From positions 1-47,042 of the forward strand of contig JANMPI010000510.1 of assembly GCA_031369785.1 (NCBI GenBank): a stretch of DNA of 47,042 nt, read 5' to 3'. Each line of letters begins with the position of its first letter. Position 1 is the first letter of the stretch. Positions 190-31,491 of the stretch are shown here, in pieces. Made by a program: the position numbers and the translations under genes. The DNA comes from Acidobacteriota bacterium (GTDB taxonomy: Bacteria; Acidobacteriota; Vicinamibacteria; Fen-336). The notes under the pieces are model-generated. The model saw nothing but the letters and a program-made list of their open reading frames with translations, ran no database searches and was not told where the DNA came from.

Positions 190-1269
190 ATGAAGGTCGG
201 CATCATTGGTCTGTCGTCCGTCGGCAAGAGCAGCCTCTTCCAGCTCCTGACCGGCGCCGCACCCACCGCACCCGGCAGCCGTCCGGAGGCGCGGATGGGC
301 ATCGCCCGCGTTCCCGATGCGCGCATCGAGAAGCTGTCGGAGATGTACAGGCCAAAGAAGAAGACGCCGGCGACGGTGGAGTACGTCGACGTTCCCGGGG
401 TAGGCAAGGGCGAGGGGTCCGCCCTCGTCGATCTGCCCGCGCTGCGCGGGGTCGACGCCCTCGTGCATGTCGTGCGCGCGTTCGAGTCCGACATGACGCC
501 GCACCCCGACGGCTCCGTCGATGCCATGCGCGACGCGCGGATGCTCGAGCTGGAGCTGATCCTCGCCGACCTGGGCGCGGTGGAGAAGCGGCTGGAGAAG
601 CTCGACTCCAACATCAAGAAGCTGAACAAGGCCGAGGACGTCTCCGAGCGCGTGCTCTTCCTCAAGATGAAGGAGGCGCTCGAGGCGGAGAAGCCGCTGC
701 GCGAGATGGAGCTCACGGACGACGAGCGGCGCCGCCTGCGCAACTACTCGTTTCTCACCGAGAAGCCGATCCTCCTCGTGGTGAACGTCGGCGAGGACCA
801 GATGAAGAACGCGGGCGCGCTCCTCGAGTCGTCCGGGCTCGCGGCGTTCGCGAAGGCGCCGGGCCGCGCGCTCTGCCCGGTGGCGGCCACCATCGAAGCC
901 GAGGTGGCGCAGTTGAGCCCCGAGGACGCCCGCGCTTTTCGCGAGGACCTCGGGCTCGAGGAGCCGGGCCTCGACCGCGTCATCCGCACTTCGTACGCGC
1001 TCCTCGGGCTCATCTCCTTCCTGACCGCCGGCGAGGACGAATGCCGTGCGTGGACCATCCGCAAGGGGACGAAGGCACAGATCGCCGCCGGCACCATCCA
1101 CTCCGACATCGAGCGCGGGTTCATCCGCGCCGAGGTGGTGGCGTTCGACGACCTCGTGGCCTCCGCCGGGTCGCTGCCGGCCTGCCGCGAGAAGGGAACG
1201 CTGCGCCTCGAGGGCAAGGAATACATCGTCCGCGACGGGGACGTCATCAACTTCCGCTTCAACGTTTGA
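190..1269 (+). CDS. ychF: Ribosome-binding ATPase YchF (Obg-like GTPase family)
   Basis: N-terminal P-loop MKVGIIGLSSVGKSSLFQLLT. The YchF-specific C-terminal TGS-like end is present (KGTLRLEGKEYIVRDGDVINFRFNV), as is the conserved FLTAGEDECRAWTIRKGTKA block. The ORF is 359 aa. Confidence 0.95.
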   Translation: MKVGIIGLSSVGKSSLFQLLTGAAPTAPGSRPEARMGIARVPDARIEKLSEMYRPKKKTPATVEYVDVPGVGKGEGSALVDLPALRGVDALVHVVRAFESDMTPHPDGSVDAMRDARMLELELILADLGAVEKRLEKLDSNIKKLNKAEDVSERVLFLKMKEALEAEKPLREMELTDDERRRLRNYSFLTEKPILLVVNVGEDQMKNAGALLESSGLAAFAKAPGRALCPVAATIEAEVAQLSPEDARAFREDLGLEEPGLDRVIRTSYALLGLISFLTAGEDECRAWTIRKGTKAQIAAGTIHSDIERGFIRAEVVAFDDLVASAGSLPACREKGTLRLEGKEYIVRDGDVINFRFNV

Positions 1270-2150
1270 CCTGTCCGCGCTGCCGGCGTCCGGTGGCGGT
1301 GGCGCGGCCGCAGTGCCTGTACTGCGGGGCGGACGTCTCCTCGCTCGTGCCCGCGGCGCGCTCGCATGGTGCGGCGGCGCCGGCCGCGCTCGCCCCCCCC
1401 GACCCGCGGCCGGACCGCGGGCTGGTGATCGTGGCCCGCGACGGCGCGGACCCGGCGCGGCTGGAAGCGGCCCTCCACCTCTCCCCGTACGAAGCCGCGC
1501 AATGGGCGCGGCGGGGCGGGTTTCACCTCTACCGCGCGGTGCCCTCCGCGGACGCGGAGGCGGAGCGGGAGCGAATCACCGCCCACGGAATCGTGGCTTT
1601 CACGTTCGCGGAAGCCGACGTGCGCGCGGCGGCGGATCCGGTGCCGGTCCTGGGCGGAGTCTTCGACGGCACGGCGTTGCGGCTCCGGACGCGCGCGGGC
1701 ACGGTCGCGATCGTGGCCGCCGACATCCTCCTCGTGGTGAAGGGCCCGATCGCCCGTGAGCACCCGGTGAGCGAGAGCCTGCGCTTCCCGCGCATTGCCA
1801 CCCTCGAGCCCGGGTACCGCTTCCACGTCCATCGCCATGCCGATCCCCGCCCGGTGGAGATCGATCCCGGCGCGTTCGACTTCGGCCTCGCACGAGCGGG
1901 CGAGGGCTCATCCCTCGAGGTCGCGGGATGGATCGCGGCCTTGACCACGTCGTCGCCCGTCGACGACGGCTTCCGCCGCCTGACTCCGGCCCTGGCGCCG
2001 GTGATCGCGCCCCCCGGCGCGTCCGCTCGCCCCGAGGACGCCTTGCGCACCAGTGCGTCGGCGACGCCCGCCATCCTCGACAACCTCGCCCAGTTCCGCT
2101 TCTACTCCGCCTGGCGCGGGGCCGTGGAGCGCGCGGCACGGCTTCGCTAA
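1266..2150 (+). CDS. Hypothetical protein with N-terminal CxxC-x10-CxxC zinc-ribbon
   Basis: The TTG at 1266 overlaps the ychF TGA (TTGA), the same junction type used repeatedly in this window. The N-terminus reads LTCPRCRRPVAVARPQCLYCG. Coding-like third-position bias continues after the ychF stop. The 1041-1265 part of the listed ORF lies in an alternative frame of ychF. I recognise no other domain. Confidence 0.5.
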   Translation: MTCPRCRRPVAVARPQCLYCGADVSSLVPAARSHGAAAPAALAPPDPRPDRGLVIVARDGADPARLEAALHLSPYEAAQWARRGGFHLYRAVPSADAEAERERITAHGIVAFTFAEADVRAAADPVPVLGGVFDGTALRLRTRAGTVAIVAADILLVVKGPIAREHPVSESLRFPRIATLEPGYRFHVHRHADPRPVEIDPGAFDFGLARAGEGSSLEVAGWIAALTTSSPVDDGFRRLTPALAPVIAPPGASARPEDALRTSASATPAILDNLAQFRFYSAWRGAVERAARLR

Positions 2151-2187
2151 CCGCGGTTCCGGGCCCTGTGCTACGGTTTCGCGTCGC

Positions 2188-3138
2188 ATGAAGCTCATCG
2201 TCCAGATCCCCTGCCTGAACGAGCACGACACGCTGCCGGCGACGCTGGCCGCCATCCCGCGCGTGATCCCCGGGATCGACGTGGTCGAGGTCCTGATCAT
2301 CGACGACGGCTCCACGGACGGCACGGCCGAAGTCGCCCGCGCCCACGGCGCCGATCACGTCGTGCGCTTCACCCGCCGGAAGGGCCTGGCGGCCGGCTTC
2401 ATGGCCGGGCTCGACGCGTGCCTGCGCCTCGGCGCCGACATCATCGTGAACACCGACGCCGACCATCAGTACCCCGGCCACCAGATCCCGATGCTGGTGG
2501 CGCCCATCCTGCGCGGCGAGGCGGACATGGTGGTGGGCGACCGCGAGGTGCACGGCATCGCGCACTTCTCGTGGACCAAGCGCCAGCTGCAGGGCGTCGG
2601 CTCGTGGGTGGTGCGCAAGGTGTCCGGCACCACGGTCGCGGACGCGACCAGCGGCTTCCGCGCGCTGAACCGCGAGGCCGCGCTGCGCATCAACATCGTG
2701 AGCGAGTTCACCTACACCCTGGAGTCGATCATCCAGGCCGGCAAGAAGAAGATGGCGGTCGCGCATCTCCCCATCGCGAGCCACGAGACCCGCGAGTCGC
2801 GGCTTTTCTCCTCGACCTGGGAGTACGTGAAGCGCAGCGGGGCCACCATCATCCGCATCTACGCGATGTACGAGCCGCTGAAGGTGTTCGTGCTCCTCGG
2901 CTCGGCGCTGCTCTTCGGCGGCTTCGTGCTCGGGGCGCGATACGCGTACTTCTGGGCCCTCGGCGACATCCGCGGCCACCTGCAGTCGGCGATCCTGTCC
3001 GTCCTGCTGCTGATCCTCGGCTTCCAGACCCTGCAGTGGGGGATCATGGCCGACCTCGTGGCCAGCAATCGGAAGCTCCTCGAGGACCTGTTGTACCGCG
3101 TCCGCAAGGCCGAGCTCACGGACCGGCCGCGTGGCTGA
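2188..3138 (+). CDS. GT2 glycosyltransferase, GtrB/ArnC/DPM1-like (polyprenyl-phosphate sugar synthase type) with C-terminal TM hairpin
   Basis: The ATG at 2188 (MKLIVQIPCLNE) is in frame within ORF 2053-3138. Motifs: IIDDGSTDGT and NTDADHQY (DxD). There are two C-terminal hydrophobic helices (VFVLLGSALLFGGFVLG, AILSVLLLILGFQTLQWGI). Confidence 0.85.
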   Translation: MKLIVQIPCLNEHDTLPATLAAIPRVIPGIDVVEVLIIDDGSTDGTAEVARAHGADHVVRFTRRKGLAAGFMAGLDACLRLGADIIVNTDADHQYPGHQIPMLVAPILRGEADMVVGDREVHGIAHFSWTKRQLQGVGSWVVRKVSGTTVADATSGFRALNREAALRINIVSEFTYTLESIIQAGKKKMAVAHLPIASHETRESRLFSSTWEYVKRSGATIIRIYAMYEPLKVFVLLGSALLFGGFVLGARYAYFWALGDIRGHLQSAILSVLLLILGFQTLQWGIMADLVASNRKLLEDLLYRVRKAELTDRPRG

Positions 3139-3982
3139 GCCGCGGGACGTCTCGGTGGTGATCCCGGCCTTCAATGAAGAAGGCGGGATCGCGGACGTCG
3201 TGCGCCGCCTCGCCGCCGTCGGGCCGTGGCGGGAGATCGTCGTCGTGGACGACGGCTCCACCGACGCCACCGCCGCGCGGGCAGCCGATGCCGGCGCGCG
3301 CGTCGTCCGACATCCCTACAACAAGGGCAACGGCGCTTCGGTGAAGACGGGGATACGGGAAGCGGCCGGCTCCGTCGTGCTGCTCCTGGACGCCGACGGC
3401 CAGCACGATCCCGGGGAGGCGCTTTCCGTCATCGCCCCGGTGGGCATCCACGACATGGTCATCGGCGCCCGGCGCGCGGCGGATCAGACCCTGGTGCGCG
3501 CGCTCGGAAACCGTGCGTTCAATGGACTGGCGTCCTGGCTCACGGACCGGCCGATCCCCGACCTCACGTCCGGGTTCCGCGCCGCGCGCCGCGACCGGCT
3601 GCTCGACGTCATCCACCTCCTGCCCAACGGCTTCTCCTACCCGACCACGTCGTGCCTCGCCTTCCTGAAGGCCGGCCTGAACGTTCTCTTCGTCCCCGTC
3701 ACCGCGCGCCCGCGCATCGGCAGGAGCAAGATCCGCGTGGTGCGCGACGGCGTGCGCTTCCTGCTCATCATCCTGAAGATCGTCACCCTTTACAGCCCGA
3801 TGAAGGTCTTCTTCCCCATCTCCGCGGCATCGCTCGTGGTGGGGATCGCGTACGGCATCTGGAACGTCGTGCGCTACGACAAGATCCCGATGGGGGCGGC
3901 GCTCCTCATCCAGCTCGGCGTGGTGGTCTTCCTCTTCGGGCTCATCTCCGAGCAGATCGCGTCCGCGCAGGACCGGAAGTGA
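3131..3982 (+). CDS. GT2 glycosyltransferase, GtrB/CsbB-like with C-terminal TM hairpin
   Basis: VSVVIPAFNEEGGI, VVVDDGSTDAT, LLDADGQHDP, and two C-terminal TM helices. The GTG start overlaps the upstream stop by 8 nt (GTGGCTGA). Confidence 0.85.
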   Translation: MAEPRDVSVVIPAFNEEGGIADVVRRLAAVGPWREIVVVDDGSTDATAARAADAGARVVRHPYNKGNGASVKTGIREAAGSVVLLLDADGQHDPGEALSVIAPVGIHDMVIGARRAADQTLVRALGNRAFNGLASWLTDRPIPDLTSGFRAARRDRLLDVIHLLPNGFSYPTTSCLAFLKAGLNVLFVPVTARPRIGRSKIRVVRDGVRFLLIILKIVTLYSPMKVFFPISAASLVVGIAYGIWNVVRYDKIPMGAALLIQLGVVVFLFGLISEQIASAQDRK

Positions 3983-4001
3983 GGGCGGCCGGCGCGGCCG
4001 C

Positions 4002-6647
4002 ATGACGGTTCGCCGCAACGACGTCCTCCTCATCGTCCTGCTGGCCGCGCTCCCGCTCCTCGCCTACCTGCCCGCGCTCCGCGCCGGGCGGCTGCTCGGG
4101 CCCGGGGACGGCGCCGACCTGCACCTGCCGCTGCGCGCCGCGGTGTGGGAGTCCTATCGCAGCGGCGACCTCCCGGCATGGAACCCCGGGATCTTCCTGG
4201 GCACGCCGCTCCTCGCCGCCTATCGTCCCGGGGCTTTCTACCCGCCGATGTTCGCTCTCGCCGCGCTCCCGTCCTTCACCGCCTTCCAGGTCCTCGTCCT
4301 GGCTTCGCTCGCGGCCAGCGGCCCGCTCGTCTTCCTGTATGTGCGGCGCCTGGGGGGCGAGGGCATCGGCGCCTTCGTGGCCGGGATGAGCTACGCGCTG
4401 GGTCCGTATCTCGTGGGCCACCTCGGAGACACCGCGACCGTGACCGCGGCGCCGCTCCTGCCCCTCCTGCTCCTCGCCGCCGAGTCGCACGTGAATCGCG
4501 CCCGCGCCGGACGCGCCGCCGGCCTCGCGGCCGCGATCGCGCTGGTGGTGCTGGCCGGATCCCCGGAAGCGACACGGGCCGCGGGCGCCCTGCTCATCGG
4601 CCGGCTTCTCGTCGCTCATCTCCTGCCCGGCGAGCGCACCCCCCGGCCGGGGGTGAGCGTCCTCGCGATCGCGGCCGGCCTCGCCCTCGCCGCACCGCAA
4701 TGGGCGCCGACGCTTCTGGCCCTCCGCGACGCGGGACGAGCCGTCACCGGGCTCGCCTCGCCGGAGACGCCGCTCCCCGGGTTCTTCGGCCTCGTGCTGC
4801 GCTACGCGTCGCACACGCCCGCGCCCGCGCTCGCCCTCGCCGCGCTGCCCCTCGCCATCACGCAGACGCCGGTGCGGGTCCTCGGGTCCGCGCTCCTCAT
4901 CAGCCTTGCCCTGCAGTGGGGACGCGGGCCGCTGGCCGCCGCGGGATCGCTGGCCATCGTCTTCGATCTCACGCTGTGCATCCTCGCCGGCCTGTCGCTC
5001 TCCGCGCAGTGGCGGACCCGGCGCTCGCCCGGCGGCGCGCGCCTCCGCGCCTATTTCCTCGTGGCCGCGCTCGCGTCGTCGGCCGCGCTCTCGGTGGCCG
5101 CCGCCGTCCTCGGGCCGCTGCCCCAGACGCTCGCGGGCGCGGTCGGCGTCCTCGCCTTGAGCCTCATCCTGTATTTCTCCCTCGCGTCGTCCCCGCACGC
5201 GCTGCGCGCCGGCCTGTGGCTGCTGCCGCTCACGGTGTCGTTCCTCCTCCAGCCCCACGGCCGCGGCGCCTGGAGCGATGCGCCGACGCGTGACGAGCTC
5301 TACCGCGGCTCGGGCACCCGCGAGGCGGTGCAGCGCGCGATGGGCGTCCTCGGCCACGACCGCGTGCTGACCCTCGTTCGCCGCTGGCCGCACGGCCGCG
5401 AGGCCGACCTCGCCTACGCGAACCGCGCGGTCTTCACCGGCGGGCGGAGCGCCAACGGGTACGACCCGATGGTGCCGCTGCGCACGCGGATGGCGCTCGG
5501 CGCGATGAACGTCGGCGGCATCCTGCCCGGCGCGTTCTTCCGCTCCGATCCCGCCCGTCTGGCGCTGCTCGGCATCCGCTGGGTGCAGGTCCCGGTGGAT
5601 CTCCTCGGCGGCGATCCGGGATCGATGGGCCGCGGCGAGCCGCTCGACATCACCCTCCAGCCGGGAGACGCGCGGCTCTTCCCGTTGCCGATGATCCCCG
5701 CCACGCAGATCGTGCTCGTCTCGTCACTCTCCGACGCCGTTTCCATCCCCCAGGACGAGACCGTCGTCCGGGTGCGCGCCCGCCTCGCCTCGACCGGACG
5801 CGAGTTCGTCCTCGAGGTGCGGGCCGGCGTCCACACCGCGGAATGGGCGCTCGATCGCGCCGACGTCCGCGCACGGGCCGCGCATCGCCGTCCCGACATC
5901 GCGCAGACGTGGCCCGGCCCCGGCGGCGGCTTCGAGGCCCATCTCTACCAGGGCGTGCTGCCCCTTCCCGGCCGGTACTACCTCGACGGACTCTCCGTCG
6001 AGCGCTTGCCGGGGCGCGGCGCGCTGCGGCTCGCGCACCTCGCGGTCGTGGACGAGGTCACCCATCGCACGACGTCGATCGCCCTCGGCGCGTCGTACGT
6101 GAGCGACACGCGCCATCTCGTGGAACGCGCGGCCACGCCCGCGGTGCGCCTGTTCGAGGCGCCGGCCGGGGCCGCCGCCCGCGTCGTCCCGCGGCTGCGG
6201 GTCCTCGCCGACGACGACGCCGTGCTCGAGGCGCTCGGCGCCGCGACGCGGCTCGGCATCGATCCCGCCCACGAAGCGCTGGCCACCGCCGCCGATGCCG
6301 CGGGGGTGCGGATGCCGGACGCGGCGCGGGCGGGGCGCGCGGAGATGGCGCGGTCGGACGGCGCGCGCATCGAGGTCCGCGGCGAGGGGCCGGGCCTCCT
6401 CGTCATGGCCGCGGCGTGGGATCGCGGGTGGACGGCGTCCATCGACGACCGGGCGGTGCCGCTCCTGCGCGTGAACCACGCCGAGATGGCCGTCCCCCTC
6501 GAGGCCGGCATCCATCGCGTCGTCCTGCGCTACCACGCCCGCGGGCTCGCCGCCGGGCTCGCCCTCGCCGCCGCCGCGGCGGCCGGAATCGGCCTCGCCC
6601 TCGCGCGGGCGAAGGTTGACCCTTCTCCGAAGCGCGTGCTAGCGTGA
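4002..6647 (+). CDS. Large polytopic membrane protein, YfhO-like GT-C-type glycosyltransferase candidate
   Basis: 881 aa. The N-terminal motif SGDLPAWNPGIFLGTPLLAAYRPGAFYPPM resembles the YfhO signature (lPlWNP..fgG.P). About 12 or more hydrophobic segments are followed by a roughly 400-aa soluble C-terminal region. It sits immediately downstream of two GtrB/CsbB-like GT2 genes. Confidence 0.6.
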   Translation: MTVRRNDVLLIVLLAALPLLAYLPALRAGRLLGPGDGADLHLPLRAAVWESYRSGDLPAWNPGIFLGTPLLAAYRPGAFYPPMFALAALPSFTAFQVLVLASLAASGPLVFLYVRRLGGEGIGAFVAGMSYALGPYLVGHLGDTATVTAAPLLPLLLLAAESHVNRARAGRAAGLAAAIALVVLAGSPEATRAAGALLIGRLLVAHLLPGERTPRPGVSVLAIAAGLALAAPQWAPTLLALRDAGRAVTGLASPETPLPGFFGLVLRYASHTPAPALALAALPLAITQTPVRVLGSALLISLALQWGRGPLAAAGSLAIVFDLTLCILAGLSLSAQWRTRRSPGGARLRAYFLVAALASSAALSVAAAVLGPLPQTLAGAVGVLALSLILYFSLASSPHALRAGLWLLPLTVSFLLQPHGRGAWSDAPTRDELYRGSGTREAVQRAMGVLGHDRVLTLVRRWPHGREADLAYANRAVFTGGRSANGYDPMVPLRTRMALGAMNVGGILPGAFFRSDPARLALLGIRWVQVPVDLLGGDPGSMGRGEPLDITLQPGDARLFPLPMIPATQIVLVSSLSDAVSIPQDETVVRVRARLASTGREFVLEVRAGVHTAEWALDRADVRARAAHRRPDIAQTWPGPGGGFEAHLYQGVLPLPGRYYLDGLSVERLPGRGALRLAHLAVVDEVTHRTTSIALGASYVSDTRHLVERAATPAVRLFEAPAGAAARVVPRLRVLADDDAVLEALGAATRLGIDPAHEALATAADAAGVRMPDAARAGRAEMARSDGARIEVRGEGPGLLVMAAAWDRGWTASIDDRAVPLLRVNHAEMAVPLEAGIHRVVLRYHARGLAAGLALAAAAAAGIGLALARAKVDPSPKRVLA

Positions 6648-7396
6648 CCGTTTTCCCGATGAAACCCAGCCTTTCCATCTTCTTCCCGGCCTACAACGAC
6701 GCGGGGACGATCGCGAGCCTCGTGCTCGTCGCCCACATGACGGCGCGCCAGATCACCGACGACTACGAGGTGATCGTGGTCAACGATGCGAGCCCCGACC
6801 ACACCGGCGAGCTGCTCGACGAGATGGTGCGCACCTACCCCTGGCTCAAGGTCGTCCACCACGCGCAAAACCGGGGCTACGGCGGCGCGCTCCGCAGCGG
6901 CTTCGCCGCCGCGACCAAGGATCTCGTCTTCTACACCGACGGGGACGCCCAGTACGACCCGCGCGAGCTGCTGAAGCTCTACGAAGCGTTCGGCCCCGGC
7001 GTCGACTTCGTGAACGGGATCAAGATTGCGCGCTCCGATCCCTTCCATCGCAAGGTGATCGGCCGCATCTACCACACGTTCGTGAAGACGATGTTCGGCC
7101 TCCGGCTGGAGGACGTGGACTGCGATTTCCGGCTCATGCGCCGCGCGGTGTTCGAGAAGGTGACCCTCACCCGCTCGTCGGGGGTCATCTGCGTCGAGCT
7201 CATGAAGAAGGTGCAGGACCACGGCTTCCGCATCGCCGAGGTGCCGGTGAACCACTTCCACCGCGCCTACGGCCGCAGCCAGTTCTTCAACGTGCCGCGG
7301 GTGGCGCGCACGCTCGCCGACCTCGCGAAGCTGTGGCTCGAGCTCGTGCTCCGCAAACAGCACCTGCGCGGGGAGCCGGTCGCGGTGAAGTCCTGA
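6644..7396 (+). CDS. GT2 glycosyltransferase (DPM1/ArnC-like catalytic domain, no TM tail)
   Basis: LSIFFPAYNDAGTI, VVNDASPDHT, YTDGDAQYDP. The GTG at 6644 overlaps the upstream TGA (GTGA). Confidence 0.85.
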   Translation: MTVFPMKPSLSIFFPAYNDAGTIASLVLVAHMTARQITDDYEVIVVNDASPDHTGELLDEMVRTYPWLKVVHHAQNRGYGGALRSGFAAATKDLVFYTDGDAQYDPRELLKLYEAFGPGVDFVNGIKIARSDPFHRKVIGRIYHTFVKTMFGLRLEDVDCDFRLMRRAVFEKVTLTRSSGVICVELMKKVQDHGFRIAEVPVNHFHRAYGRSQFFNVPRVARTLADLAKLWLELVLRKQHLRGEPVAVKS

Positions 7397-7425
7397 ATCA
7401 CCTCGAGTTCTACCGCGGCCGCAAG

Positions 7426-8382
7426 GTGATGGTCACCGGCGCGCTGGGGTTCATCGGCTCCAACCTGTGCCGCACCCTGGCCGACCTCGGCGCGCAAGTC
7501 CTCGCCGTCGACAGCCTCCTTCCCGATTACGGCGGCAACCTCTTCAACCTCGCCGGCTACGAGGACAAGGTCCGCATCAACATCGCCGACGTGCGCGGCC
7601 ATGCCATGGAGTACCTCGTCCGCGACCAGGAGGTGCTGTTCAACCTCGCCGGCCAGGTGAGCCACATCGACTCCATGACCGACCCCTTCACCGATCTCGA
7701 GATCAACTGCCGGAGCCAGCTCTGGATCCTGGAGGCGGTGCGGAAGAACAACCCCGGCGTGAAAATGGTGTACGCGGGGACGCGGCAGGTGTACGGCAAG
7801 CCGAAGAGCCTGCCCGTGGACGAGACGCACCTGCTGAATCCCACCGACGTCAACGGCATCAACAAGATCTCGGGCGAGCTCTATCATCTCGTCTACCACT
7901 CGGTTTACGGCGTGCGCGCCTCGTCCCTGCGCCTCACCAACACCTACGGCCCGCGGCAGCTCATCAAGCACCCCCGGCAGGGCTTCATCGGGTGGTTCGT
8001 GCGCAAGGTCGTGCTCGGCGAGGAAATCCAGATCTTCGGCGACGGCGCCCAGCTCCGCGACTTCGACTACGTGGACGACGTGGTGGATGCCTTCCTCCGC
8101 GCGGGGGCGGCGGACGCCGCCGACGGGCAGGTGTTCAACCTCGGCGGCGAGGCGCCGGTCTCGCTGCTCGACCTCGTGAAGCTGATGATCGAGATCGCCG
8201 GCCGGGGGTCGTACACGCTGGTCCCGTTCCCCCCCGAGCGGAAGCGCATCGATATCGGCGACTTCTACGGCGATGCGACCAAGATCCACGACGTGCTGGG
8301 CTGGAAGCCGAGGGTCGGCCTGCGTGAAGGGCTGGCCCGCACCATCGACTACTATCGCGCGCACAAGGACGAATACCTGTGA
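7426..8382 (+). CDS. Extended-SDR NAD-dependent sugar-nucleotide epimerase/dehydratase family protein (atypical active site)
   Basis: Rossmann motif VMVTGALGFIGSNL. It ends with family-typical TNTYGPRQ and DFDYVDDVV blocks. The start is taken as GTG 7426 or ATG 7429. The ATG at 7333 would overlap the upstream gene by 64 nt and cannot be excluded. Confidence 0.8.
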   Translation: MMVTGALGFIGSNLCRTLADLGAQVLAVDSLLPDYGGNLFNLAGYEDKVRINIADVRGHAMEYLVRDQEVLFNLAGQVSHIDSMTDPFTDLEINCRSQLWILEAVRKNNPGVKMVYAGTRQVYGKPKSLPVDETHLLNPTDVNGINKISGELYHLVYHSVYGVRASSLRLTNTYGPRQLIKHPRQGFIGWFVRKVVLGEEIQIFGDGAQLRDFDYVDDVVDAFLRAGAADAADGQVFNLGGEAPVSLLDLVKLMIEIAGRGSYTLVPFPPERKRIDIGDFYGDATKIHDVLGWKPRVGLREGLARTIDYYRAHKDEYL

Positions 8383-9491
8383 CCGCCGTGCCCTTCGTCG
8401 ACTTCAAGGCCCACGTCCGCGCCATCCGTCCGGAGATCGATGCCGCGGTGGCGCGCGTGCTCGATTCCGGGTGGTTCATCCTCGGCCCCGAGGGGGAGGC
8501 CTTCGAGCGCGAGCTCGCTTCGTTCCTGGGCGCGCGGGAGGCGGTGGCGGTCGCCAACGGGACGGAGGCGATCCAGCTCGCCCTCGAAGGGCTCGGCATC
8601 GGGAGCGGCGCAGAGGTGATCACGTCACCGCTCACCGCCGCCTTCACGGCGCTCGCGATCCTGCGCGCCGGCGCGCGGCCGGTGTTCGCCGACCTCGATC
8701 CGGTCACCTTGAACGTGGCGCCGGCTGCCGTCGCCGCCGCGATCACCCCCCTCACGCGGGCGATCCTCCCCGTTCATCTCTACGGCCACCCCGCCGACCT
8801 CGATCCGCTGCTGGCGCTCGGCCGCGAACGCGGCGTCGCGGTGATCGAAGACGCCTGCCAGGCCGCGGGCGCGTCCTACAAGGGACGCCGCGTGGGGGCC
8901 CTGTCCGGGATCGGCGCGCTGTCCTTCTATCCGACCAAGAACCTGGGCGCGCTCGGAGACGGCGGCGCCATCCTCGTGCAGGATCCGCAGGTGGCGGCAC
9001 GGCTCCGCCGGCTGCGCAACGGCGGGCAGAGCGACCGCTATCGTCACGAGATCGCGGGCATCAACAGCCGCCTCGACGAGGTGCAGGCCGCGATCCTCCG
9101 CGTCGGGCTGCGCCACCTCGAAGAGTGGACGGCACGCCGGACGGCGATCGCGGGCCGGTACCGCGCCGGCCTCGCCGGGACCTCTGGGCTGACCCTTCCC
9201 CGCGACGAGCCCTACGCGTCCCCCGCTTATCATCTCTATGTCGTTCGCCATGCGCAGCGCGACGCGCTCGCGGCGGGGCTCGCGAAGCGGGAGGTCGGTA
9301 CGCTCATTCACTATCCGATCCCGCTGCACCTGCAGCCCGCGTTCGAGGGGACGGGGCGCCCCGGAGCCTTCCCCATCGCCGAGCGGGCCGCCCGCGAGAT
9401 CCTGTCCCTGCCGCTTTATCCCGAGATGCCGGACGCGCACGTCGACGTCGTCATCGAGGCGGTCCGCGCGGTGTCCGCGACCCTCCGCTGA
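8379..9491 (+). CDS. DegT/DnrJ/EryC1/StrS-family PLP-dependent sugar aminotransferase
   Basis: GWFILGPEGEAFERELASFLG, NGTEAIQLAL and the PLP-lysine context SFYPTKNLGALGDGGAI. GTGA overlap with the upstream gene. Confidence 0.9.
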   Translation: MTAVPFVDFKAHVRAIRPEIDAAVARVLDSGWFILGPEGEAFERELASFLGAREAVAVANGTEAIQLALEGLGIGSGAEVITSPLTAAFTALAILRAGARPVFADLDPVTLNVAPAAVAAAITPLTRAILPVHLYGHPADLDPLLALGRERGVAVIEDACQAAGASYKGRRVGALSGIGALSFYPTKNLGALGDGGAILVQDPQVAARLRRLRNGGQSDRYRHEIAGINSRLDEVQAAILRVGLRHLEEWTARRTAIAGRYRAGLAGTSGLTLPRDEPYASPAYHLYVVRHAQRDALAAGLAKREVGTLIHYPIPLHLQPAFEGTGRPGAFPIAERAAREILSLPLYPEMPDAHVDVVIEAVRAVSATLR

Positions 9492-9496
9492 GCCTC

Positions 9497-12046
9497 GTGC
9501 CGGCCGCGCCGGCGGTGCTCTGCGCGCTTCTGCTCTTCCTCGTCCCCGGTCTCGTGTGGCTCGCGCTCCTGCGCGTCGGGGATCGCGCGGCGCTGGGGTG
9601 GGACGAGGCGGCCTTCCTGGTCGCCGCCATCGGCGTCGCCGTCACGGCGTGGGTGGGCCTCGTGCTCGCCGAGGCCGGGCAGTTCTCGCTCGTCACCGCC
9701 GCGATGGTGATCGCCCTGGCCGGCCTGGGCGCGCTCCTGGCCGGACGGCAGCGCGCCACTCTTCCGTGGCGCGGGCTGTCCAGGGCGCCGCACGCCTGGG
9801 GGACGCTGGCCGTCCTCGTCCTCGCCTTTGCCGTCGATGCGCGGCCGGGGGAGTACCTCCTCGGCGGCCGTGATCCCGGCATCTACATCGCGGCCATGGC
9901 GCGCATCGCGCGCACCGGCGCCATCGCGGCCGTCGACCGGACGGTGCTCTCGATTCCGCCGGAAGACCTCGAGCTCTTCTACCGGCACCCCGGCGGCCCC
10001 GAGTACACCTGGGGCCGCTTCATGGGCTTTCCGCTGGAGCGGCCGCAGACCGGCCGCGTCGTCCCCGAGTTCTTCCACTTGTTCCCGGCCTTTGGCGCGT
10101 TCCTGTTCCAGGCCATGGGCGTGCGCGGCGCGCTGGCGTCGCCGGTCGTCTTCGGGGTGATGGGCACGCTGGCCGCCCTCTTCGCGCTGCGCCGGATCTT
10201 CGGGCCGGCGGCGGGGCTGCTCGGCGCGCTCCTGCTGTGCCTGAACGTGCTCCAGGCGTGGTTCGCGCGCTACCCGGTGTCGGAGCCGATGACGCAGTTC
10301 CTCGTTCTGTCCGGCCTCTTCGCTTTTGCGCTCTGGGAAGAGCGGCGCTCCCCGGCCCTGGCGGCGATTGCCGGAGCATTCCTCGGGCTGACGCTCCTCG
10401 CCCGCATCGACAGCGTGCTCCTCGTGGTTCCGCTCCTGGCCTGGCTCGTGCTGCGGCGCGCACAGGGCGCTTTGGGAGCGCGCGAGACGTATCCCCTCCT
10501 GCTCCCGGTCGCGCTTCTCGCCTTCCACGCCTTCCTCCACGCCGGGTTCTGGTCGCGGAAATACCTGCTGGAGATCGCCACCCGTCCGTACTGGAGGCAG
10601 CCGGCCCTGGTCTGGCTCCTCGGCGCGGCGGCCGCGATCGGCTTGATCCTCGCCGTCCATCGCCTGGCGCCCCGGCTCCGCGCGCGGCTCGGACCTCGCG
10701 CGTCGGCCCTGCGCGCGGGCATTTCCGCGCTCGCCGTCGTGCTCGCGCTCTACGCCTACGCGGTGCGCCCCGCGCTCTCGGCGTGGGCGGGCGCGGACGG
10801 GAACGATCCGGCGCGCGCCCTGGCGGCGGCCCCGATGCTCCACGCCCTCGGCTTCCACAAGCTGGCCGCGCACGACGCGCAATCGCTCGTCCGCCTCGGG
10901 TGGTTCGTGACTCCCCTCGGGCTCGCCCTCGGCCTCCTCGGGATCGTGATCGCGCTCCGCGAGTGGCGTCCGCGGTACCTCTTCCCGCTGCTGACTCTCG
11001 CCACCTTCTCGCTTTTCTACTTCTACAAGATCCGCGTCTACGCCGACTACTACTTCGCCATGCGCCGCTTCGTGCCCGTGATCCTGCCCCTGGTCATCGG
11101 GCTCGCCGCCTTCGCCATCACCCGGATCGCCAGGCGCCCCGGCGTGCCGCGGGTAGTGGCCGCGGGGATGGCCGCCGTGGTCGCCGTCGTGTACGCGCAG
11201 GACATGCTGCCGACGCTGCGCCATCGGGAGTGGGCGGGCGCGGTGCGCTTCGTCGACGACGTGGCGCGGCGCTTCGGGCCGCGGGACGTCGTGATCTTCG
11301 AGCAGCCGCGCTCCATCCACCTCCTGTCCCTGCCCCTGTGGGCGATCCACGGCGTGAACGCGCTCGAGCTCGCCCGCTTCAACCCCGATCCCGACCGCCT
11401 GCAGCACCTGGTGCGGGCGTGGCGCGGCCGCTACCGGAACATCTACTTCGTGCACACGTACAGCACCGATCTCTGCGGGCTCTTCCTGGAGAGCGTCGAG
11501 GAGCGCTCGTTCGGCGCCTTCGAGTGGGAGCGCGCCTATGGGCGCGCGCCCCGGGGGCGGGAATTCAAGTCGCTGCGATTCACGATCTCGCGCGTCGTGC
11601 TGCCCGAGGAGCTGCACGTGCCGGCGCTCCCCGAGGTGGACGTGGGCGGCTCGGACGACGTTCAAGTGTCCGGCTTCTACGGCAAGGAGGGGGCCGGAGA
11701 TCACACGTACCGATGGACGGGATCGTGCGCTTCCATCTACGTCCCCGGAGCGCGGGCCGGGGAGACGCTCTCCATCGTGGCCTCCGCGGGACGAAGGCCG
11801 GCGGCGTCGCCCGCCGTCGTCCGCGTGAGCCTGGGCGGAGCGAAGCTCGGCACGTTCACCGCCGGAGCGGACTGGGAGGCACACGCGCTCCGCGTGCCGT
11901 CCACGTTCGTCGATGCGCTGCCCGTGCTCCGCCTCGACGTCGCGGGCTGGCGTCCCGCCAACACCGAGAAGGGGTCGAGCGACGTGCGCGACCTCGGGGT
12001 CATGATCGACCGCGTGCGGATGGCCCCCGCGGACGCCATACAATGA
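9497..12046 (+). CDS. Polytopic membrane protein, PMT/ArnT-like (GT-C fold) glycosyltransferase candidate with soluble C-terminal module
   Basis: The in-frame GTG at 9497 is the first start after the aminotransferase stop. The upstream 8273-9496 part of the listed 1257-aa ORF is an R/P/G-rich alternative frame of the two preceding genes. There are many TM segments, then a roughly 140-aa C-terminal non-membrane domain (HTYRWTGSCASIYVP...DVRDLGVMIDRVRM). Confidence 0.55.
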   Translation: MPAAPAVLCALLLFLVPGLVWLALLRVGDRAALGWDEAAFLVAAIGVAVTAWVGLVLAEAGQFSLVTAAMVIALAGLGALLAGRQRATLPWRGLSRAPHAWGTLAVLVLAFAVDARPGEYLLGGRDPGIYIAAMARIARTGAIAAVDRTVLSIPPEDLELFYRHPGGPEYTWGRFMGFPLERPQTGRVVPEFFHLFPAFGAFLFQAMGVRGALASPVVFGVMGTLAALFALRRIFGPAAGLLGALLLCLNVLQAWFARYPVSEPMTQFLVLSGLFAFALWEERRSPALAAIAGAFLGLTLLARIDSVLLVVPLLAWLVLRRAQGALGARETYPLLLPVALLAFHAFLHAGFWSRKYLLEIATRPYWRQPALVWLLGAAAAIGLILAVHRLAPRLRARLGPRASALRAGISALAVVLALYAYAVRPALSAWAGADGNDPARALAAAPMLHALGFHKLAAHDAQSLVRLGWFVTPLGLALGLLGIVIALREWRPRYLFPLLTLATFSLFYFYKIRVYADYYFAMRRFVPVILPLVIGLAAFAITRIARRPGVPRVVAAGMAAVVAVVYAQDMLPTLRHREWAGAVRFVDDVARRFGPRDVVIFEQPRSIHLLSLPLWAIHGVNALELARFNPDPDRLQHLVRAWRGRYRNIYFVHTYSTDLCGLFLESVEERSFGAFEWERAYGRAPRGREFKSLRFTISRVVLPEELHVPALPEVDVGGSDDVQVSGFYGKEGAGDHTYRWTGSCASIYVPGARAGETLSIVASAGRRPAASPAVVRVSLGGAKLGTFTAGADWEAHALRVPSTFVDALPVLRLDVAGWRPANTEKGSSDVRDLGVMIDRVRMAPADAIQ

Positions 12047-12804
12047 CGGGCTTGAAGCGCACCCTCGTGGTCGTGCCCACCTACAACGAGCGGGAGAACG
12101 TGGTGCCGCTGATCGCGGAGCTGCTCGCCCTCGGCCCGCACATCGACGTCTGCGTGGCCGACGACGGCAGCCCCGACGGCACCGGCGACGCGGTGCGCGC
12201 GGAGATGGCGCGCCATCCCGGCCGGGTGTCGCTCCTCGACCGCAAGGAGAAGGGCGGCCGCGGGGCGGCGGTGCTGGCCGCGTTCAAGCAGGCGCTCGCG
12301 GATTCGAAGGCCTACGAGTACGTGTTCGAGATGGACGCCGACTTTTCCCATCACCCGCGGGAGATCCCGAAGTTCCTGGCCCGGCTCGAGACCCACGACA
12401 TGGTGATCGGCTCGCGCTACATCGAGGGCGGCGGGACGTCCGAATGGGGCGTGTCGCGGCCGCTCCTGTCCTGGCTGGCCAACAAATACATCAAGCTCGT
12501 GGCCGGCATCCCCGTGCGCGACACCACGAGCGGCTATCGCGGGTACCGCCGCGAGGTGCTGGAGGCGACCGACTTCGACCGCATCAGGATCGAGGGCTTC
12601 GCCGTGCACGGCGAGATGGCGTACCAGGCCTGGGTCAACGGCTTCCGCCTGGGCGAGGTGCCGATCCACTTCAAGAACCGCGCGCGGGACGCGTCGAAGC
12701 TTTCCGGCCGCGAGATCTACATGGCCGTCCTCAACTTTGCCCTCCTCCGCGTCCGGTACGGCTTCCGCCCGCGCCGGAAGCAGGAGGCGACCCCGGGCCC
12801 GTGA
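12043..12804 (+). CDS. Polyprenol-phosphate mannose/glucose synthase-like GT2 (Ppm1/DPM1 type, soluble)
   Basis: LVVVPTYNERENV, VADDGSPDGT, EMDADFSHHP, GSRYIEGGG and RDTTSGYRGYRREVL are typical of the DPM1/Ppm1 family. The ATG at 12043 overlaps the upstream TGA (ATGA). Confidence 0.8.
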   Translation: MTGLKRTLVVVPTYNERENVVPLIAELLALGPHIDVCVADDGSPDGTGDAVRAEMARHPGRVSLLDRKEKGGRGAAVLAAFKQALADSKAYEYVFEMDADFSHHPREIPKFLARLETHDMVIGSRYIEGGGTSEWGVSRPLLSWLANKYIKLVAGIPVRDTTSGYRGYRREVLEATDFDRIRIEGFAVHGEMAYQAWVNGFRLGEVPIHFKNRARDASKLSGREIYMAVLNFALLRVRYGFRPRRKQEATPGP

Positions 12805-14006
12805 ACGTGCTCATGGTGACGTCCTCGTACCCGAGGTTTCCCGGGGACGTGGTGGCGCCCTTCATCGAGTCCATCGCGCGCGGGGTCGCCGCCCGCGGCC
12901 ATCGCGTCGACGTGGTGCTCCCCCACCATCCGGAGCTGCGCCGTCCGCCGGGCGAGCCGGTGTCCTTCTTTCCTTATCGTTACGCGCCCGAGCGGTGGAG
13001 CCGCTGGGGCTACGCGCAGAGCCTGCGCAAGGACGTGAGCGTGCGCGCGGGCGCGTTCCTGCTCGCGCCGCTGGTCGCTCTCGCCTTGCGGCGGACGGTG
13101 ACGGAGCGGCTGCGCGCCCTTCGTTACGACGTCGTGCACGCGCACTGGGTGGTGCCGAACGCGGCCCTCATCGCCGGCCTCGTGCGGCGTCACCACGTGC
13201 CGCTGGTGGTGAGCCTCCACGGCAGCGACGTGTTCGTGGCGGAGACGCTCCTGCCCGCGCGCGCCCTCGCCCGGCGCGCGCTCGGCGACGCGGGAGCGGT
13301 CACGGCGTGCAGCGCCGATCTCCACCGGCGTGCGCTGCGGCTCGGCGCCCGGCCGGAGCGTACGCGGACGGTGCCCTACGGTGTCGACGCGATGGATCAA
13401 GGCGACGTCGACATCGCCGGCGTCCGCGCGGAGCTCGGCGGGCACGCGGGGACGACGCTCGTGGTGGGCCTCGGCCGGCTCGTGGAGAAGAAGGGGTTCG
13501 CGCACCTCATCGATGCCGCGGCGCGCGTCCCCGGCCTGCGGGTGGCCCTGGCCGGGGACGGCGACCTGCGCGGCGAGCTGGAGGCGCAGGTCCGGGCCAC
13601 CGGCGCGCCGGTCGTCCTCGTCGGCGCCCTCAACCGGACGGCGGTTTTGGCCGCGCTCGCCGCCGCAGACATCGTGGTGGTGCCGTCCGTCATCGATCGC
13701 GCGGGCAACGTCGACGGCCTGCCCAACGTGCTGCTGGAGGCGATGGCGGCCGGCCGCGCGGTGATCGCGTCGCGCGTGGCGGGGATCCCGGACGTCGTCA
13801 CCGACGGCGTCGACGGCGTGCTGGTGGCGCCCGGCGACGTCGCCGCCCTGGCCGAAGCACTCGCGCGTCTCGCCGGCGACCCGGCGCTCCGCGCCCGGCT
13901 GGGCGCGGCGGCGCGGGACACGGTGACCGAGCGGCTCAGCTGGCCGCGGGCGGCGCGCACCTTCGAGGAGACCTATGCCGCCGCGGCGGCGGTTTTCGCC
14001 CGCTAG
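12801..14006 (+). CDS. GT4 (GT-B fold) glycosyltransferase
   Basis: VNVLMVTSSYPRFPGDVV N-terminus and the C-terminal EX7E-type motif GLPNVLLEAMAAGRAVIASRVAGIPDVV. GTGA overlap at 12801. Confidence 0.85.
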   Translation: MNVLMVTSSYPRFPGDVVAPFIESIARGVAARGHRVDVVLPHHPELRRPPGEPVSFFPYRYAPERWSRWGYAQSLRKDVSVRAGAFLLAPLVALALRRTVTERLRALRYDVVHAHWVVPNAALIAGLVRRHHVPLVVSLHGSDVFVAETLLPARALARRALGDAGAVTACSADLHRRALRLGARPERTRTVPYGVDAMDQGDVDIAGVRAELGGHAGTTLVVGLGRLVEKKGFAHLIDAAARVPGLRVALAGDGDLRGELEAQVRATGAPVVLVGALNRTAVLAALAAADIVVVPSVIDRAGNVDGLPNVLLEAMAAGRAVIASRVAGIPDVVTDGVDGVLVAPGDVAALAEALARLAGDPALRARLGAAARDTVTERLSWPRAARTFEETYAAAAAVFAR

Positions 14007-15177
14007 GGGAACGGCGCTCCGGGTGCAGGACCCGGTGGAGCGGATGCTCGCGGCCGCCCTCGACTTCCCCGGGCGCGCGCGGGTGCCGGCCCTCGCCGGT
14101 TCGGTCGATCTCGCCCGGGTGCGCCACGTGCTCGTCCTCCGCCTCGACCGCATCGGCGACGTGCTGATGTCCCTGCCCGCGCTGGCCGATCTCCGCCGCG
14201 CGCTGCCTTCCGCCCGGATCACGCTCGCCGTCGGGCGCTGGAGCGAAGAGGTCGCGCACATGGCGCCGGTGGACGAGGTCGTCCCCTGGAGCGCGCCCTG
14301 GGCGGGCCGCCGCGGCGAGGGTGCGGAAGGGCGATGGGCATTGACGCGCCGCGCGCGCGCGCTGGCCGCGCACCCGCCGGACGTCGCCATCGACCTCCAG
14401 GGGGACGTTCGCGCCGCCTTCCTGATGCGCCTCACCGGCGCGCGGGCGCGGGTCGGCTATGCGAACACCGGCGGCGGATCGTGGCTCACCCACGTCGTGG
14501 CCCTCGACGAGACCGTCTCCTGGGTCGAGCAGAACCGCCGGGCCGTGGAGATCGTCGCCGGTCCGCGCGACCCATCGCCCACGCGCGCCCACGTCGCCGC
14601 CGATCCGGATTGGGCGGCCGCGCTCCTCGAGCGCGAGGGTCTCGGCGGGCAACGCCCCCTGATCGCCATCCATCCCAGCGGCGGGCGGATGATCAAGCAG
14701 TGGCCCGTGGAGCGCTGGCGTGAGGTTGCGCGACGCCTGCAGGACGCGCGGGGAGCGACCATCGCGGTCACGGGCGGGGCCGGCGACGTTGGACTCGCGC
14801 ACGCTCTGGGCGAAGGGTTGTCGCGTCCCGTCATCGATCTCGCCGGACGGCTCTCGGTGGCGGAGACCATGGCGGTGATCGGCGGCGCGGATCTCTTCCT
14901 GTCTCCCGATACGGGGCCGATGCACATGGCGTGCGTGATGGGCACGCCGTCGGTCGCCGTATTCGGCCCCTCGGCGGCGGAGCGGTACGCGTCGGCCGCG
15001 CTCTCCCCGCATCCCGAGAAGCACGTCGTGGTCCGCCGCGAGCTGTGGTGCGCGCCGTGCAATCTCATCCGCCGCCCGCCGGAGGAATGCGTGGCCGACG
15101 TCACCCCGGAGTGCCTGCGGCTCGTGACCGTCGACGACGTTTACCAGGCCGCGGCGGCGCTTTTGGGCCCGCGTTGA
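13975..15177 (+). CDS. GT9-family glycosyltransferase (heptosyltransferase-like)
   Basis: VLVLRLDRIGDVLMSLPAL, IAIHPSGG..KQWP.ERW and DTGPMHMACVMGTPSVAVFGPS are classic GT9 blocks. The start is uncertain. ATG 13975 overlaps the upstream gene by 32 nt, and GTG 14023 or ATG 14044 are alternatives. Confidence 0.75.
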   Translation: MPPRRRFSPARGTALRVQDPVERMLAAALDFPGRARVPALAGSVDLARVRHVLVLRLDRIGDVLMSLPALADLRRALPSARITLAVGRWSEEVAHMAPVDEVVPWSAPWAGRRGEGAEGRWALTRRARALAAHPPDVAIDLQGDVRAAFLMRLTGARARVGYANTGGGSWLTHVVALDETVSWVEQNRRAVEIVAGPRDPSPTRAHVAADPDWAAALLEREGLGGQRPLIAIHPSGGRMIKQWPVERWREVARRLQDARGATIAVTGGAGDVGLAHALGEGLSRPVIDLAGRLSVAETMAVIGGADLFLSPDTGPMHMACVMGTPSVAVFGPSAAERYASAALSPHPEKHVVVRRELWCAPCNLIRRPPEECVADVTPECLRLVTVDDVYQAAAALLGPR

Positions 15178-17117: not shown

Positions 17118-17137
17118 GGGCGTGGTAGGTTTACCCC

Positions 17138-21639: not shown

Positions 21640-21641
21640 GG

Positions 21642-25810: not shown

Positions 25811-25815
25811 GCGCG

Positions 25816-26766: not shown

Positions 26767-26774
26767 CGGCGTGG

Positions 26775-26799
26775 CCCTTCCACGCGTTCTCGGGAAGGG
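26775..26799 (-). promoter_or_regulatory. 7-bp stem hairpin whose 3' arm contains the SD-like GGAAGGG of the FHA-GAF gene
   Basis: The minus strand reads CCCTTCC-cgagaacgcgt-GGAAGGG-ccacgccg-ATG. The arms are perfectly complementary. The purine-rich arm lies 8 nt upstream of the ATG at 26766. Confidence 0.35.
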
Positions 26800-26875
26800 A
26801 AGCGGTCCCGGGAGTTCAGCGTATGAAGGATCTTCGCCCCTGCCCCCGGGGGAGTCAAGACAGCCCCAAAAGGAG

Positions 26876-31426: not shown

Positions 31427-31491
31427 GCTCTCCTCGGTGGACGCTCGATGGCGTCGCAGACAGGTGTCTGTTTTGACGGCGCGATGCGCGG

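Follow-up and report, generated by a model that had tools for sequence, protein, structure and literature searches.

Multiple transmembrane glycosylation components predicted in a conserved envelope-glycan operon of Vicinamibacteria

Multi-component transmembrane glycosylation is established in both Gram-positive and Gram-negative bacteria, and multiple pairs of GT-A and GT-C glycosyltransferases (GTs) within a single locus or genome are known: SccN/M and SccP/Q in Streptococcus mutans, CsdAB/CD/EF in Lactococcus lactis, and CsbB/YfhO, YkcBC, and YkoST in Bacillus subtilis (PMC11754754, PMC8035078). Here we analyze a 47,042-nt stretch of DNA from an Acidobacteriota bacterium (contig JANMPI010000510.1; hereafter the window), in which four GT2 genes (GT2a to GT2d) and the genes of two large membrane proteins (GTC1 and GTC2) lie between positions 2188 and 12804, together with genes for a short-chain dehydrogenase/reductase (SDR1) and a DegT-type aminotransferase (AT) (Table 1). 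The best explanation as a whole, to which we give a probability of roughly 0.6, is that this interval is the front half of a translationally coupled envelope-glycan operon of ~18 kb, conserved across the class Vicinamibacteria, and that the operon encodes multi-component transmembrane glycosylation. A sequence-only reading had previously named six of these genes, all of which we confirm as real at the positions it gave; its inventory of the interval overlooked SDR1 and AT.

The window has a G+C content of ~72%, and the frame periodicity of G+C at third codon positions (GC3) delineates one string of plus-strand genes from ~190 to 19997. Junctions between the operon genes are overlaps of 4–8 nt or gaps of 5–20 nt. 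GTGA-type overlaps are found at 3131/3138 (where GT2b starts 8 nt before GT2a ends), 6644/6647, 8379/8382, and 12801/12804, and the GTC2/GT2d junction is an ATGA overlap at 12043–12046, the coupling to which the sequence-only reading had drawn attention. The GT2a, AT, GTC2, and GT2d proteins coincide exactly with gene calls on the source contig, and the GTC1 protein is identical to P0121; the start of SDR1 is uncertain (GTG 7333, CTG 7393, GTG 7423, or ATG 7426). An Rfam scan of the window found no RNA family, and a promoter and terminator scan of the window gave the same counts as shuffled controls.

Families, folds, topologies, motifs, and synteny are described below; the activities, pairings, sugar, and acceptor we infer to be as follows. 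At the cytoplasmic face, four GT2 enzymes of the Dpm1/GtrB/ArnC type would each load one sugar from a nucleotide sugar onto polyprenyl (undecaprenyl) phosphate. The lipid-linked monosaccharides would be flipped by a transporter encoded outside the operon, and in the periplasm the mutually unrelated GTC1 and GTC2 would move the sugars, with inversion, onto an exported glycan. SDR1 and AT would make a nucleoside diphosphate (NDP)-linked amino sugar, probably a 3-amino sugar, to be loaded on the carrier by GT2c and attached outside by GTC2; GT2a and GT2b would form a second unit with GTC1, and GT2d would serve as an accessory donor synthase.

Like the GtrA/GtrB/Gtr*, CsbB/GtcA/YfhO, GtlA/GtlB, and Scc systems, the locus has a Dpm1/GtrB-type GT2 beside a polytopic GT-C protein, and like YfhO, GTC1 consists of a transmembrane bundle, a large extracytoplasmic domain, and a C-terminal transmembrane helix. 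With the S. mutans Scc locus it shares the presence of several pairs per locus and a flippase that is likewise unidentified (PMC11754754, PMC8035078). The density of such modules had been called unusual, which was an overstatement given the documented loci or genomes that have two or three GT-A/GT-C pairs (PMC11754754, PMC8035078). Unlike in the Gtr and Csb systems, no GtrA/GtcA gene is present in the window or in related loci, and unlike in Gtr, Csb, and Scc, the host is a Gram-negative acidobacterium, four GT2s stand against two established GT-Cs, and two of the GT2s are anchorless. GTC1 also differs from YfhO proper in that the Pfam model matches only its last 65 residues.

Analogues of the Arn pathway include FlmF2/FlmK of Francisella (also given as FlmF/FlmK) and LgmA/B/C of Bordetella. 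Like Arn, the locus combines an SDR, a DegT transaminase, an ArnC-like GT2, and a GT-C protein of the PMT_2/ArnT fold beside transferases of the lipopolysaccharide (LPS)-core type; ArnC is the best PDB relative of GT2c, and ArnT is among the best folds of both GT-Cs. Unlike in Arn, however, AT is nearer to C3-aminotransferases than to ArnB, the sugar would be a different one, SDR1 has no catalytic Tyr and does not qualify as an ArnA decarboxylase, and the operon has no formyltransferase, ArnD-type deformylase, or ArnE/F. Unlike ArnC, GT2c has no transmembrane hairpin, and unlike ArnT, GTC2 has 849 aa, three extra N-terminal helices, and a domain resembling a carbohydrate-binding module (CBM). 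The core cannot be classed as a true Arn pathway, given the ArnB and ArnA scores, the NxxxK motif of SDR1, and the lack of ArnD and ArnE/F.

The coupling of a soluble GT2d, similar to dolichyl phosphate mannose synthase (DPMS), to a PMT_2-type GTC2 recalls actinobacterial Ppm1/Pmt and mycobacterial PpgS, which together with its partner GT-C carries the locus tags Rv3631/Rv3779. Unlike in Ppm1/Pmt, GT2d is dispensable (14 of 43 loci carry it), GTC2 has neither a PMT (PF02366) nor a MIR domain, and the context suggests a glycan acceptor. By architecture, rather than by sequence comparison, the locus is also like the O-antigen pentofuranosylation system (GT136) of Citrobacter youngae, a periplasmic, post-polymerization decoration of an LPS glycan in which the GT-C protein has a C-terminal beta-sandwich CBM and sugar-modifying genes lie alongside (PMC11127046). 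In that system the donor synthase is of the phosphoribosyl type, not GT2, and a small four-helix transporter is encoded, whereas there is none here (PMC11127046).

All four GT2 proteins score above the cut-off of the Pfam GT2 family (PF00535; E from 1e-24 to 1e-30). They are distant paralogs, with pairwise identities of 23%–30% (26% for GT2a and GT2b), and have in common the motifs NE...DDGSxDxT...DxD (DAD or DGD)...(T/C)(S/D)GFR. Their top NCBIfam families are AglJ, dolichyl phosphate (Dol-P)-hexose transferase, PpgS, ArnC, and PgfS, and their top PDB chains are DPMS 5mlz (Pyrococcus), ArnC 9hwj/9bhc/8vxh, and GtrB 5ekp. GT2a is matched best by AglJ (2e-32) and Dol-P-hexose transferase, with an ArnC match spanning residues 2–291, and among PDB chains by DPMS 5mlz (2e-15) and ArnC (8e-14); GT2b is matched by AglJ (9e-41) and PpgS (5e-24). 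For GT2c, the NCBIfam matches are ArnC (4.5e-23) and PgfS (1.5e-19), and the nearest PDB chain is ArnC 9hwj (1.3e-20), followed by DPMS (5e-16) and GtrB 5ekp (9e-11). GT2d is nearest to DPMS 5mlz (1.2e-26), with PpgS (1e-12) in NCBIfam, and its relatives are labeled dolichol-phosphate mannosyltransferase in IMG. The four genes had been described as DPM1/GtrB/ArnC-like before, and the relatives found here agree with that description.

Hydropathy places two C-terminal transmembrane segments in GT2a (~231–249 and ~264–290; motif NTDADHQYP) and in GT2b (~210–247 and ~254–272; motif LLDADGQHDP) and none in GT2c or GT2d. The two-helix C-terminal anchor of the GtrB/ArnC/CsbB subtype is present in the first pair, as the sequence-only reading held, and absent from the second; that reading was also right to see GT2d as a soluble Ppm1 type. 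Both GT2c and GT2d resemble the soluble Ppm1/PpgS/GacI subtype, which is dependent on a membrane partner (PMC8035078). GT2a to GT2d are predicted from these similarities to be polyprenyl-phosphate sugar synthases of the Dpm1/GtrB/ArnC type. We rejected processive polysaccharide synthases, an alternative raised earlier for these proteins: with 250–316 aa, they have no QxxRW motif, at most two transmembrane segments, and no multi-helix transmembrane channel, and their matches to PgaC, NodC, and EpsE-type proteins are limited to the first ~90 residues.

GTC1 matches Pfam YfhO (PF09586) with 38.2 bits (cut-off, 28.5) and has ~11 transmembrane helices, a beta-rich periplasmic domain of ~420 aa, and a C-terminal transmembrane helix, a YfhO-like architecture; both NCBI and IMG label its relatives YfhO. 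The match of GTC2 to PMT_2 (PF13231) is marginal (30.9 bits; cut-off, 26.1; residues 198–344); NCBI and IMG give its relatives the names GT39 or protein mannosyltransferase. Assignment by hidden Markov models, as proposed earlier, places both proteins above family cut-offs and leaves GTC2 between the CAZy families GT39 and GT83.

PDB sequence searches with GTC1 and GTC2 gave no matches. AlphaFold2 models built on alignments of 66 (GTC1) and 73 (GTC2) homologs have a predicted local distance difference test score (pLDDT) of 90.4 and 88.5 and a predicted template modeling score (pTM) of 0.89 and 0.88, respectively. In Foldseek searches of the PDB, the leading matches of both models are exclusively GT-C enzymes at probability 1.00; their template modeling (TM)-scores are modest (0.3–0.6) because the proteins have several domains. 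For GTC1 these matches include AftD (6e-11) and ArnT 5f15 (5.6e-6; TM-score 0.60, normalized by target length), and further STT3, AftA, EmbA/B/C, ALG6/9, DPY19, and Pmt4. For GTC2 the top 26 matches are all GT-C enzymes (STT3, ArnT, AglB, ALG9/12, AftD, EmbB, PglB), AftB and Pmt4 are also listed, and matches of the C-terminal beta-sandwich to CBM35/36/6 follow after the GT-C matches. On these models, GTC1 and GTC2 are predicted to be glycosyltransferases of the GT-C fold, as had been proposed. GTC2 deserves its earlier description as PMT/ArnT-like, given its PMT_2 and ArnT matches; for GTC1, the label YfhO-like holds for the architecture but in Pfam only for residues 791–855.

A profile–profile comparison of the GTC1 family with the GTC2 family detected no relationship; the two represent independent GT-C lineages. 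Each family has an invariant Asp: D36 of GTC1 (66 homologs), in GPGDGA directly after the first transmembrane helix, and D126 of GTC2 (73 homologs), in GGRDPGxY in the loop after helix 100–114. In its model, each lies between a transmembrane helix and the first helix of the extracytoplasmic loop, and this position would suit a catalytic residue.

Among the relatives we also observe a 1187-aa fusion (P0222; L083 81–3644) in which a 75-aa linker rich in R, G, P, and S joins a GTC1 homolog to one of GT2c. Its topology is sensible, the C-terminal transmembrane helix bringing the chain back to the cytoplasm. As Rosetta-stone evidence the fusion is weak: it comes from a single 8.5-kb contig, and the linker looks like read-through.

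SDR1 is an extended SDR of GalE/RmlB-like fold that aligns end to end in the PDB with 4zrm and 7ys8 (GalE-like) and with tyvelose epimerase; 9rl0 also aligned. Where YxxxK is expected, the PDB alignment shows NGINK, with Asn in place of the catalytic Tyr, and the Asp-Glu pair of dehydratases is missing (TRQVYG at that motif). The Asn is kept in all 38 syntenic homologs, and NxxxK is found in 99 of the best 150 relatives drawn from 1.84 billion cluster representatives; by this measure the Asn variants form a broad and apparently uncharacterized SDR subfamily. Against NCBIfam ArnA, SDR1 scores 32 bits (cut-off, 777). Natural fusions of the Asn-variant SDR to a DegT protein occur among the relatives (P0368, P0394, P0431, P0467, and P0486; P0368 has 707 aa, with SDR at 10–311 and DegT at 355–700). 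These fusions support consecutive action and suggest that SDR1 and AT work one after the other, SDR1 being predicted to supply the keto-sugar for AT.

The PDB matches of AT are 7b0d (1e-110), DesV 2oga (7e-108), QdtB (2e-90), WbpE (1e-84), and ArnB (5e-60). We take DesV, QdtB, and WbpE to be C3-aminotransferases; a literature search found no paper on PDB entry 7B0D. Both NCBIfam scores of AT are far below the cut-offs: 229 bits for PseC (cut-off, 423) and 227 bits for ArnB (cut-off, 631). The product of SDR1 and AT would be an NDP-amino sugar, probably of the 3-amino type.

A scan of one genome per GTDB species yielded 195 related stretches; 80 loci were retained from these and compared with the window proteins by tblastn. 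Almost all of the kept loci are from Vicinamibacteria or from unclassified Acidobacteriota metagenome-assembled genomes (MAGs), and the named GTC1 and GTC2 homologs come from Vicinamibacteria (Acidobacteriota) MAGs. The order GT2a-GT2b-GTC1-GT2c-SDR-AT-GTC2-(GT2d)-GT4-GT9 is collinear in ~35 independent species-level genomes, with GTC2 identities of 45%–62%. Distant Vicinamibacterales loci, with a GTC2 identity of ~30%, are arranged as GT2a-GT2b-[other membrane protein]-GT2d-GT4-GT2c-SDR-AT-GTC2-GT9. The unit GT2c-SDR-AT-GTC2, beside GT9 and GT4, is invariant and kept in the distant loci too, where GT2a and GT2b also stay adjacent; GT4 is syntenic in nearly all loci, and GT9 follows GTC2 in close and distant ones. 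The SDR is missing in four loci. Across the close loci, conservation is 72%–80% for the soluble enzymes and ~55% for the GT-C proteins. The pairing of GTC2 with the Ppm1-like GT2d, which the sequence-only reading had put forward, is not the conserved one: GT2d occurs in only 14 of the 43 close loci (roughly a third to a half of the related loci), and what is conserved is GT2c-SDR-DegT-GTC2.

At the position of GTC1 in one of the distant Vicinamibacterales loci, between GT2b and GT2d, we find a polytopic open reading frame (ORF) of 432 aa (L075 3639–4937, plus strand), with THDEREY after the first transmembrane helix and its end overlapped by GT2d (ATGA). The protein gave no Pfam match and no hhalign match, and it may be a smaller GT-C swapped for the YfhO-like one.

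Several points weigh against transmembrane glycosylation as the function of the operon. NCBIfam matches of all the GT2s are far under the equivalog cut-offs, and their sugars cannot be named from them; with four GT2 genes to only two established GT-C genes, the pairings are ambiguous; and the YfhO alignment of GTC1 is restricted to residues 791–855 (profile positions 769–834 of 835). Full-text searches for Vicinamibacteria with glycosyltransferase and lipopolysaccharide, and for Vicinamibacteria glycosylation, returned no paper. The window contains no stop-to-stop ORF of 60–300 aa with at least three hydrophobic segments (GtrA, ArnE/F, or SMR type), which bears out the earlier statement that a small GtrA-type flippase gene is lacking, and no small flippase candidate is present inside the clusters of 80–83 related loci. 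Finally, SDR1 and AT could instead feed the downstream nonulosonic-acid pathway.

With regard to the flippase, there is documentation that in such systems flippases are encoded elsewhere, shared, or still unidentified (PMC8035078, PMC11754754). The only flippase-like gene of the window encodes a Wzx/MOP-type protein; a role for Wzx-type flippases in systems of this kind has been put forward (PMC8035078). The protein could flip lipid-linked monosaccharides, but it more probably serves a repeat-unit pathway.

The use of SDR1 and AT in a pseudaminic- or legionaminic-acid pathway, with GT2c loading an ordinary neutral sugar, is a possibility that we regard as unlikely. The window does hold two NeuB-type synthases, a CMP-transferase, a PseF-PseG fusion, and a second, LegB/UXS-like SDR, with AT as its only DegT protein, and AT scores alike with PseC and ArnB. 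However, GT2c-SDR-AT-GTC2 is contiguous in distant Vicinamibacterales loci that have no NeuB in their 10-kb flanks, and AT, whose PseC score is far under the cut-off, is much closer to the C3 enzymes DesV, QdtB, and WbpE (364–287 bits) than to any listed C4 enzyme. SDR1 also lacks the residues of PseB/LegB-type dehydratases.

For transmembrane glycosylation, the most probable acceptor is LPS core or O-polysaccharide, because of the GT9, GT4, and nonulosonic-acid neighbors. More broadly, the CBM-like domain of GTC2, GT9 and GT4, and the nonulosonic-acid genes favor LPS core, O-polysaccharide, or capsule over protein, and a GT-C enzyme with a CBM that binds the O-antigen or polysaccharide acceptor is a direct precedent (PMC11127046). 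That the GT-Cs glycosylate proteins in a Ppm1/Pmt- or Pgf-like manner, for example the giant immunoglobulin (Ig)/cadherin-like surface proteins at 26936–34965, seems improbable to us. GTC2 does match PMT_2, with relatives named GT39 or protein mannosyltransferase, and is ATGA-coupled to a DPMS/Ppm1-like GT2d; the YfhO-like PgfM2, of which there is a faint NCBIfam match, takes part in protein glycosylation; and the window encodes two Big_9/cadherin-like proteins (1157 and 1519 aa). But there is no PF02366 PMT match and no MIR domain, Pmt4 ranks only 33rd (GTC2) and 22nd (GTC1) in the fold searches, the C-terminal domain of GTC2 resembles carbohydrate-binding modules, the conserved neighbors GT9 and GT4 are of the LPS-core type, and most related loci have no GT2d.

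It is very improbable that the GT2s are ordinary Leloir transferases extending an undecaprenyl pyrophosphate-linked oligosaccharide in the cytoplasm, with GTC1 and GTC2 polymerase-like, ligase-like, or structural: although the GT2 family is very broad, every specific NCBIfam score of these proteins is under its cut-off, and no flippase gene for lipid-linked monosaccharides is nearby, for each of the four, the characterized relatives that score highest across the complete catalytic domain are polyprenyl-phosphate transferases, a C-terminal hairpin of the GtrB/ArnC type is found in GT2a and GT2b, GTC1 and GTC2 match GT-C enzymes rather than Wzy or WaaL, and the tight GT2/GT-C coupling is conserved.

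Two further membrane proteins, m1 and m2, had been thought GT-C-like; they are encoded divergently, m1 on the minus strand and m2 on the plus strand, and a GT-C relationship is not demonstrable for them. No Pfam or NCBIfam match was found for m1. Residues 35–156 of m2 are homologous to the beta-sandwich of GTC2 (residues 713–846; hhalign probability 97%, E 1e-11), such that a CBM-like module is found at opposite ends of two different membrane proteins. For the transmembrane part of m2, no relative was found in Pfam/NCBIfam (with the protein and 41 relatives), in a PDB profile search, or by hhalign against both GT-C families. There are ~100 homologs of m2 in Acidobacteriota, all labeled hypothetical.

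The locus is an uncharacterized example of a well-known type of system in an understudied phylum, and it leaves the concept of that system unchanged. More novelty lies in the coupling of a Tyr-less SDR subfamily to DegT, in the domain that GTC2 and m2 have in common, and in the always-adjacent GT2a and GT2b. A more far-reaching proposal, which we put forward tentatively and consider rather unlikely, is that GT2c, the Tyr-less SDR, the C3-type DegT protein, and GTC2 make up a constitutive, class-wide, Arn-analogous pathway that brings an undescribed amino sugar to lipid A or the LPS core. The Asn-SDR subfamily, often fused to DegT, would then carry out the first step by a new route to a keto-sugar, and m2, which shares the putative acceptor-binding domain of GTC2, would be one more enzyme, from a new family, that acts on that glycan.

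Vicinamibacteria, few of which are in culture, are Acidobacteriota that abound in soils and sediments, and this locus is among their most conserved envelope operons. It predicts an LPS or surface glycan with several periplasmically added sugars, one of them an amino sugar. Decorations of this kind could influence charge, how well the cells resist cationic antimicrobials and tolerate desiccation, and their susceptibility to phages. The operon also offers four divergent but well-conserved candidate synthases of undecaprenyl phosphate sugars and two divergent GT-Cs with confident models, and it gives clean genomic access to an SDR subfamily without the canonical catalytic tyrosine.

Table 1. Genes of the glycan operon and other features of the window
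Feature	Position	Strand	Evidence or note
YchF	190-1269	+	Pfam map
Conserved protein	~1299-2150	+	N-terminal CxxC...CxxC zinc-ribbon-like motif
GT2a, 316 aa	2188-3138	+	Pfam PF00535 E 3e-24
GT2b, 283 aa	3131-3982	+	Pfam PF00535 E 7e-25
GTC1, 881 aa	4002-6647	+	Pfam YfhO 38.2 bits; GT-C fold model
GT2c, 250 aa	6644-7396	+	Pfam PF00535 E 2e-26
SDR1	about 7393/7423-8382	+	Pfam Epimerase E 4e-44
AT, DegT/DnrJ/EryC1 pyridoxal phosphate-dependent sugar aminotransferase	8379-9491	+	Pfam E 7e-114
GTC2, 849 aa	9497-12046	+	Pfam PMT_2 30.9 bits; GT-C fold model
GT2d, 253 aa	12043-12804	+	Pfam PF00535 E 5e-30
GT4, cytoplasmic Leloir type	12801-14006	+	Pfam Glycos_transf_1 + Glyco_trans_4
GT9-family, heptosyltransferase-like	13975-15177	+	Pfam Glyco_transf_9 E 1e-35
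TagF-like "surface carbohydrate" protein, TIGR04396	to 17117	+	Pfam/NCBIfam
NeuB, CMP-transferase, NeuB	17138-19997	+	Pfam
Giant protein, 1519 aa	26936-31495	-	single Big_9/cadherin-like Ig domain (Pfam)
Giant protein, 1157 aa	31492-34965	-	single Big_9/cadherin-like Ig domain (Pfam)
Wzx/MOP-type flippase	37683-39152	+	Pfam Polysacc_synt E 2e-10; NCBIfam HfsF 4e-15
m1, 357 aa, ~10 transmembrane helices	39907-40980	-	GC3 frame supports minus strand
m2, 613 aa, ~12 transmembrane helices	41013-42854	+	N-terminal periplasmic domain

Behind the core of the operon, the GT9-family protein scores 102 bits against NCBIfam heptosyltransferase I, under the cut-off of 185. Genes of nonulosonic-acid synthesis are located at 14931–19997 and 35009–37686: two NeuB-type synthases, a CMP-transferase, a 567-aa PseF-PseG fusion, a LegB/UXS/ArnA-C-like SDR, and the TIGR04396 protein. 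They suggest a sugar of the pseudaminic- or legionaminic-acid type on the same surface glycan. The giant proteins, in which Pfam recognized nothing beyond the one Ig domain each, adjoin an FHA-GAF protein, a Ser/Thr kinase with TPR repeats, and a LuxR-type two-component pair (20992–26901).

Downstream of m2, on the plus strand at 42904–46851, are genes for a GNAT acetyltransferase, a polysaccharide-deacetylase-like protein, a GT4, and a class I methyltransferase. The deacetylase-like gene (43950–44909), 32 kb from the core, has a weak Pfam match (E 3e-4); speculatively, an acetylation/deacetylation pair could fill the N-protection role that belongs to formylation and ArnD in the Arn pathway.

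At the front of the operon, the protein encoded at ~1299–2150, for which no Pfam or NCBIfam family was found, is invariably flanked by YchF and GT2a in the related loci (27%–47% identity). At the far end, a DUF6689 protein (20079–20924, minus strand; Pfam E 1.5e-62) is convergent with the end of the glycan operon.

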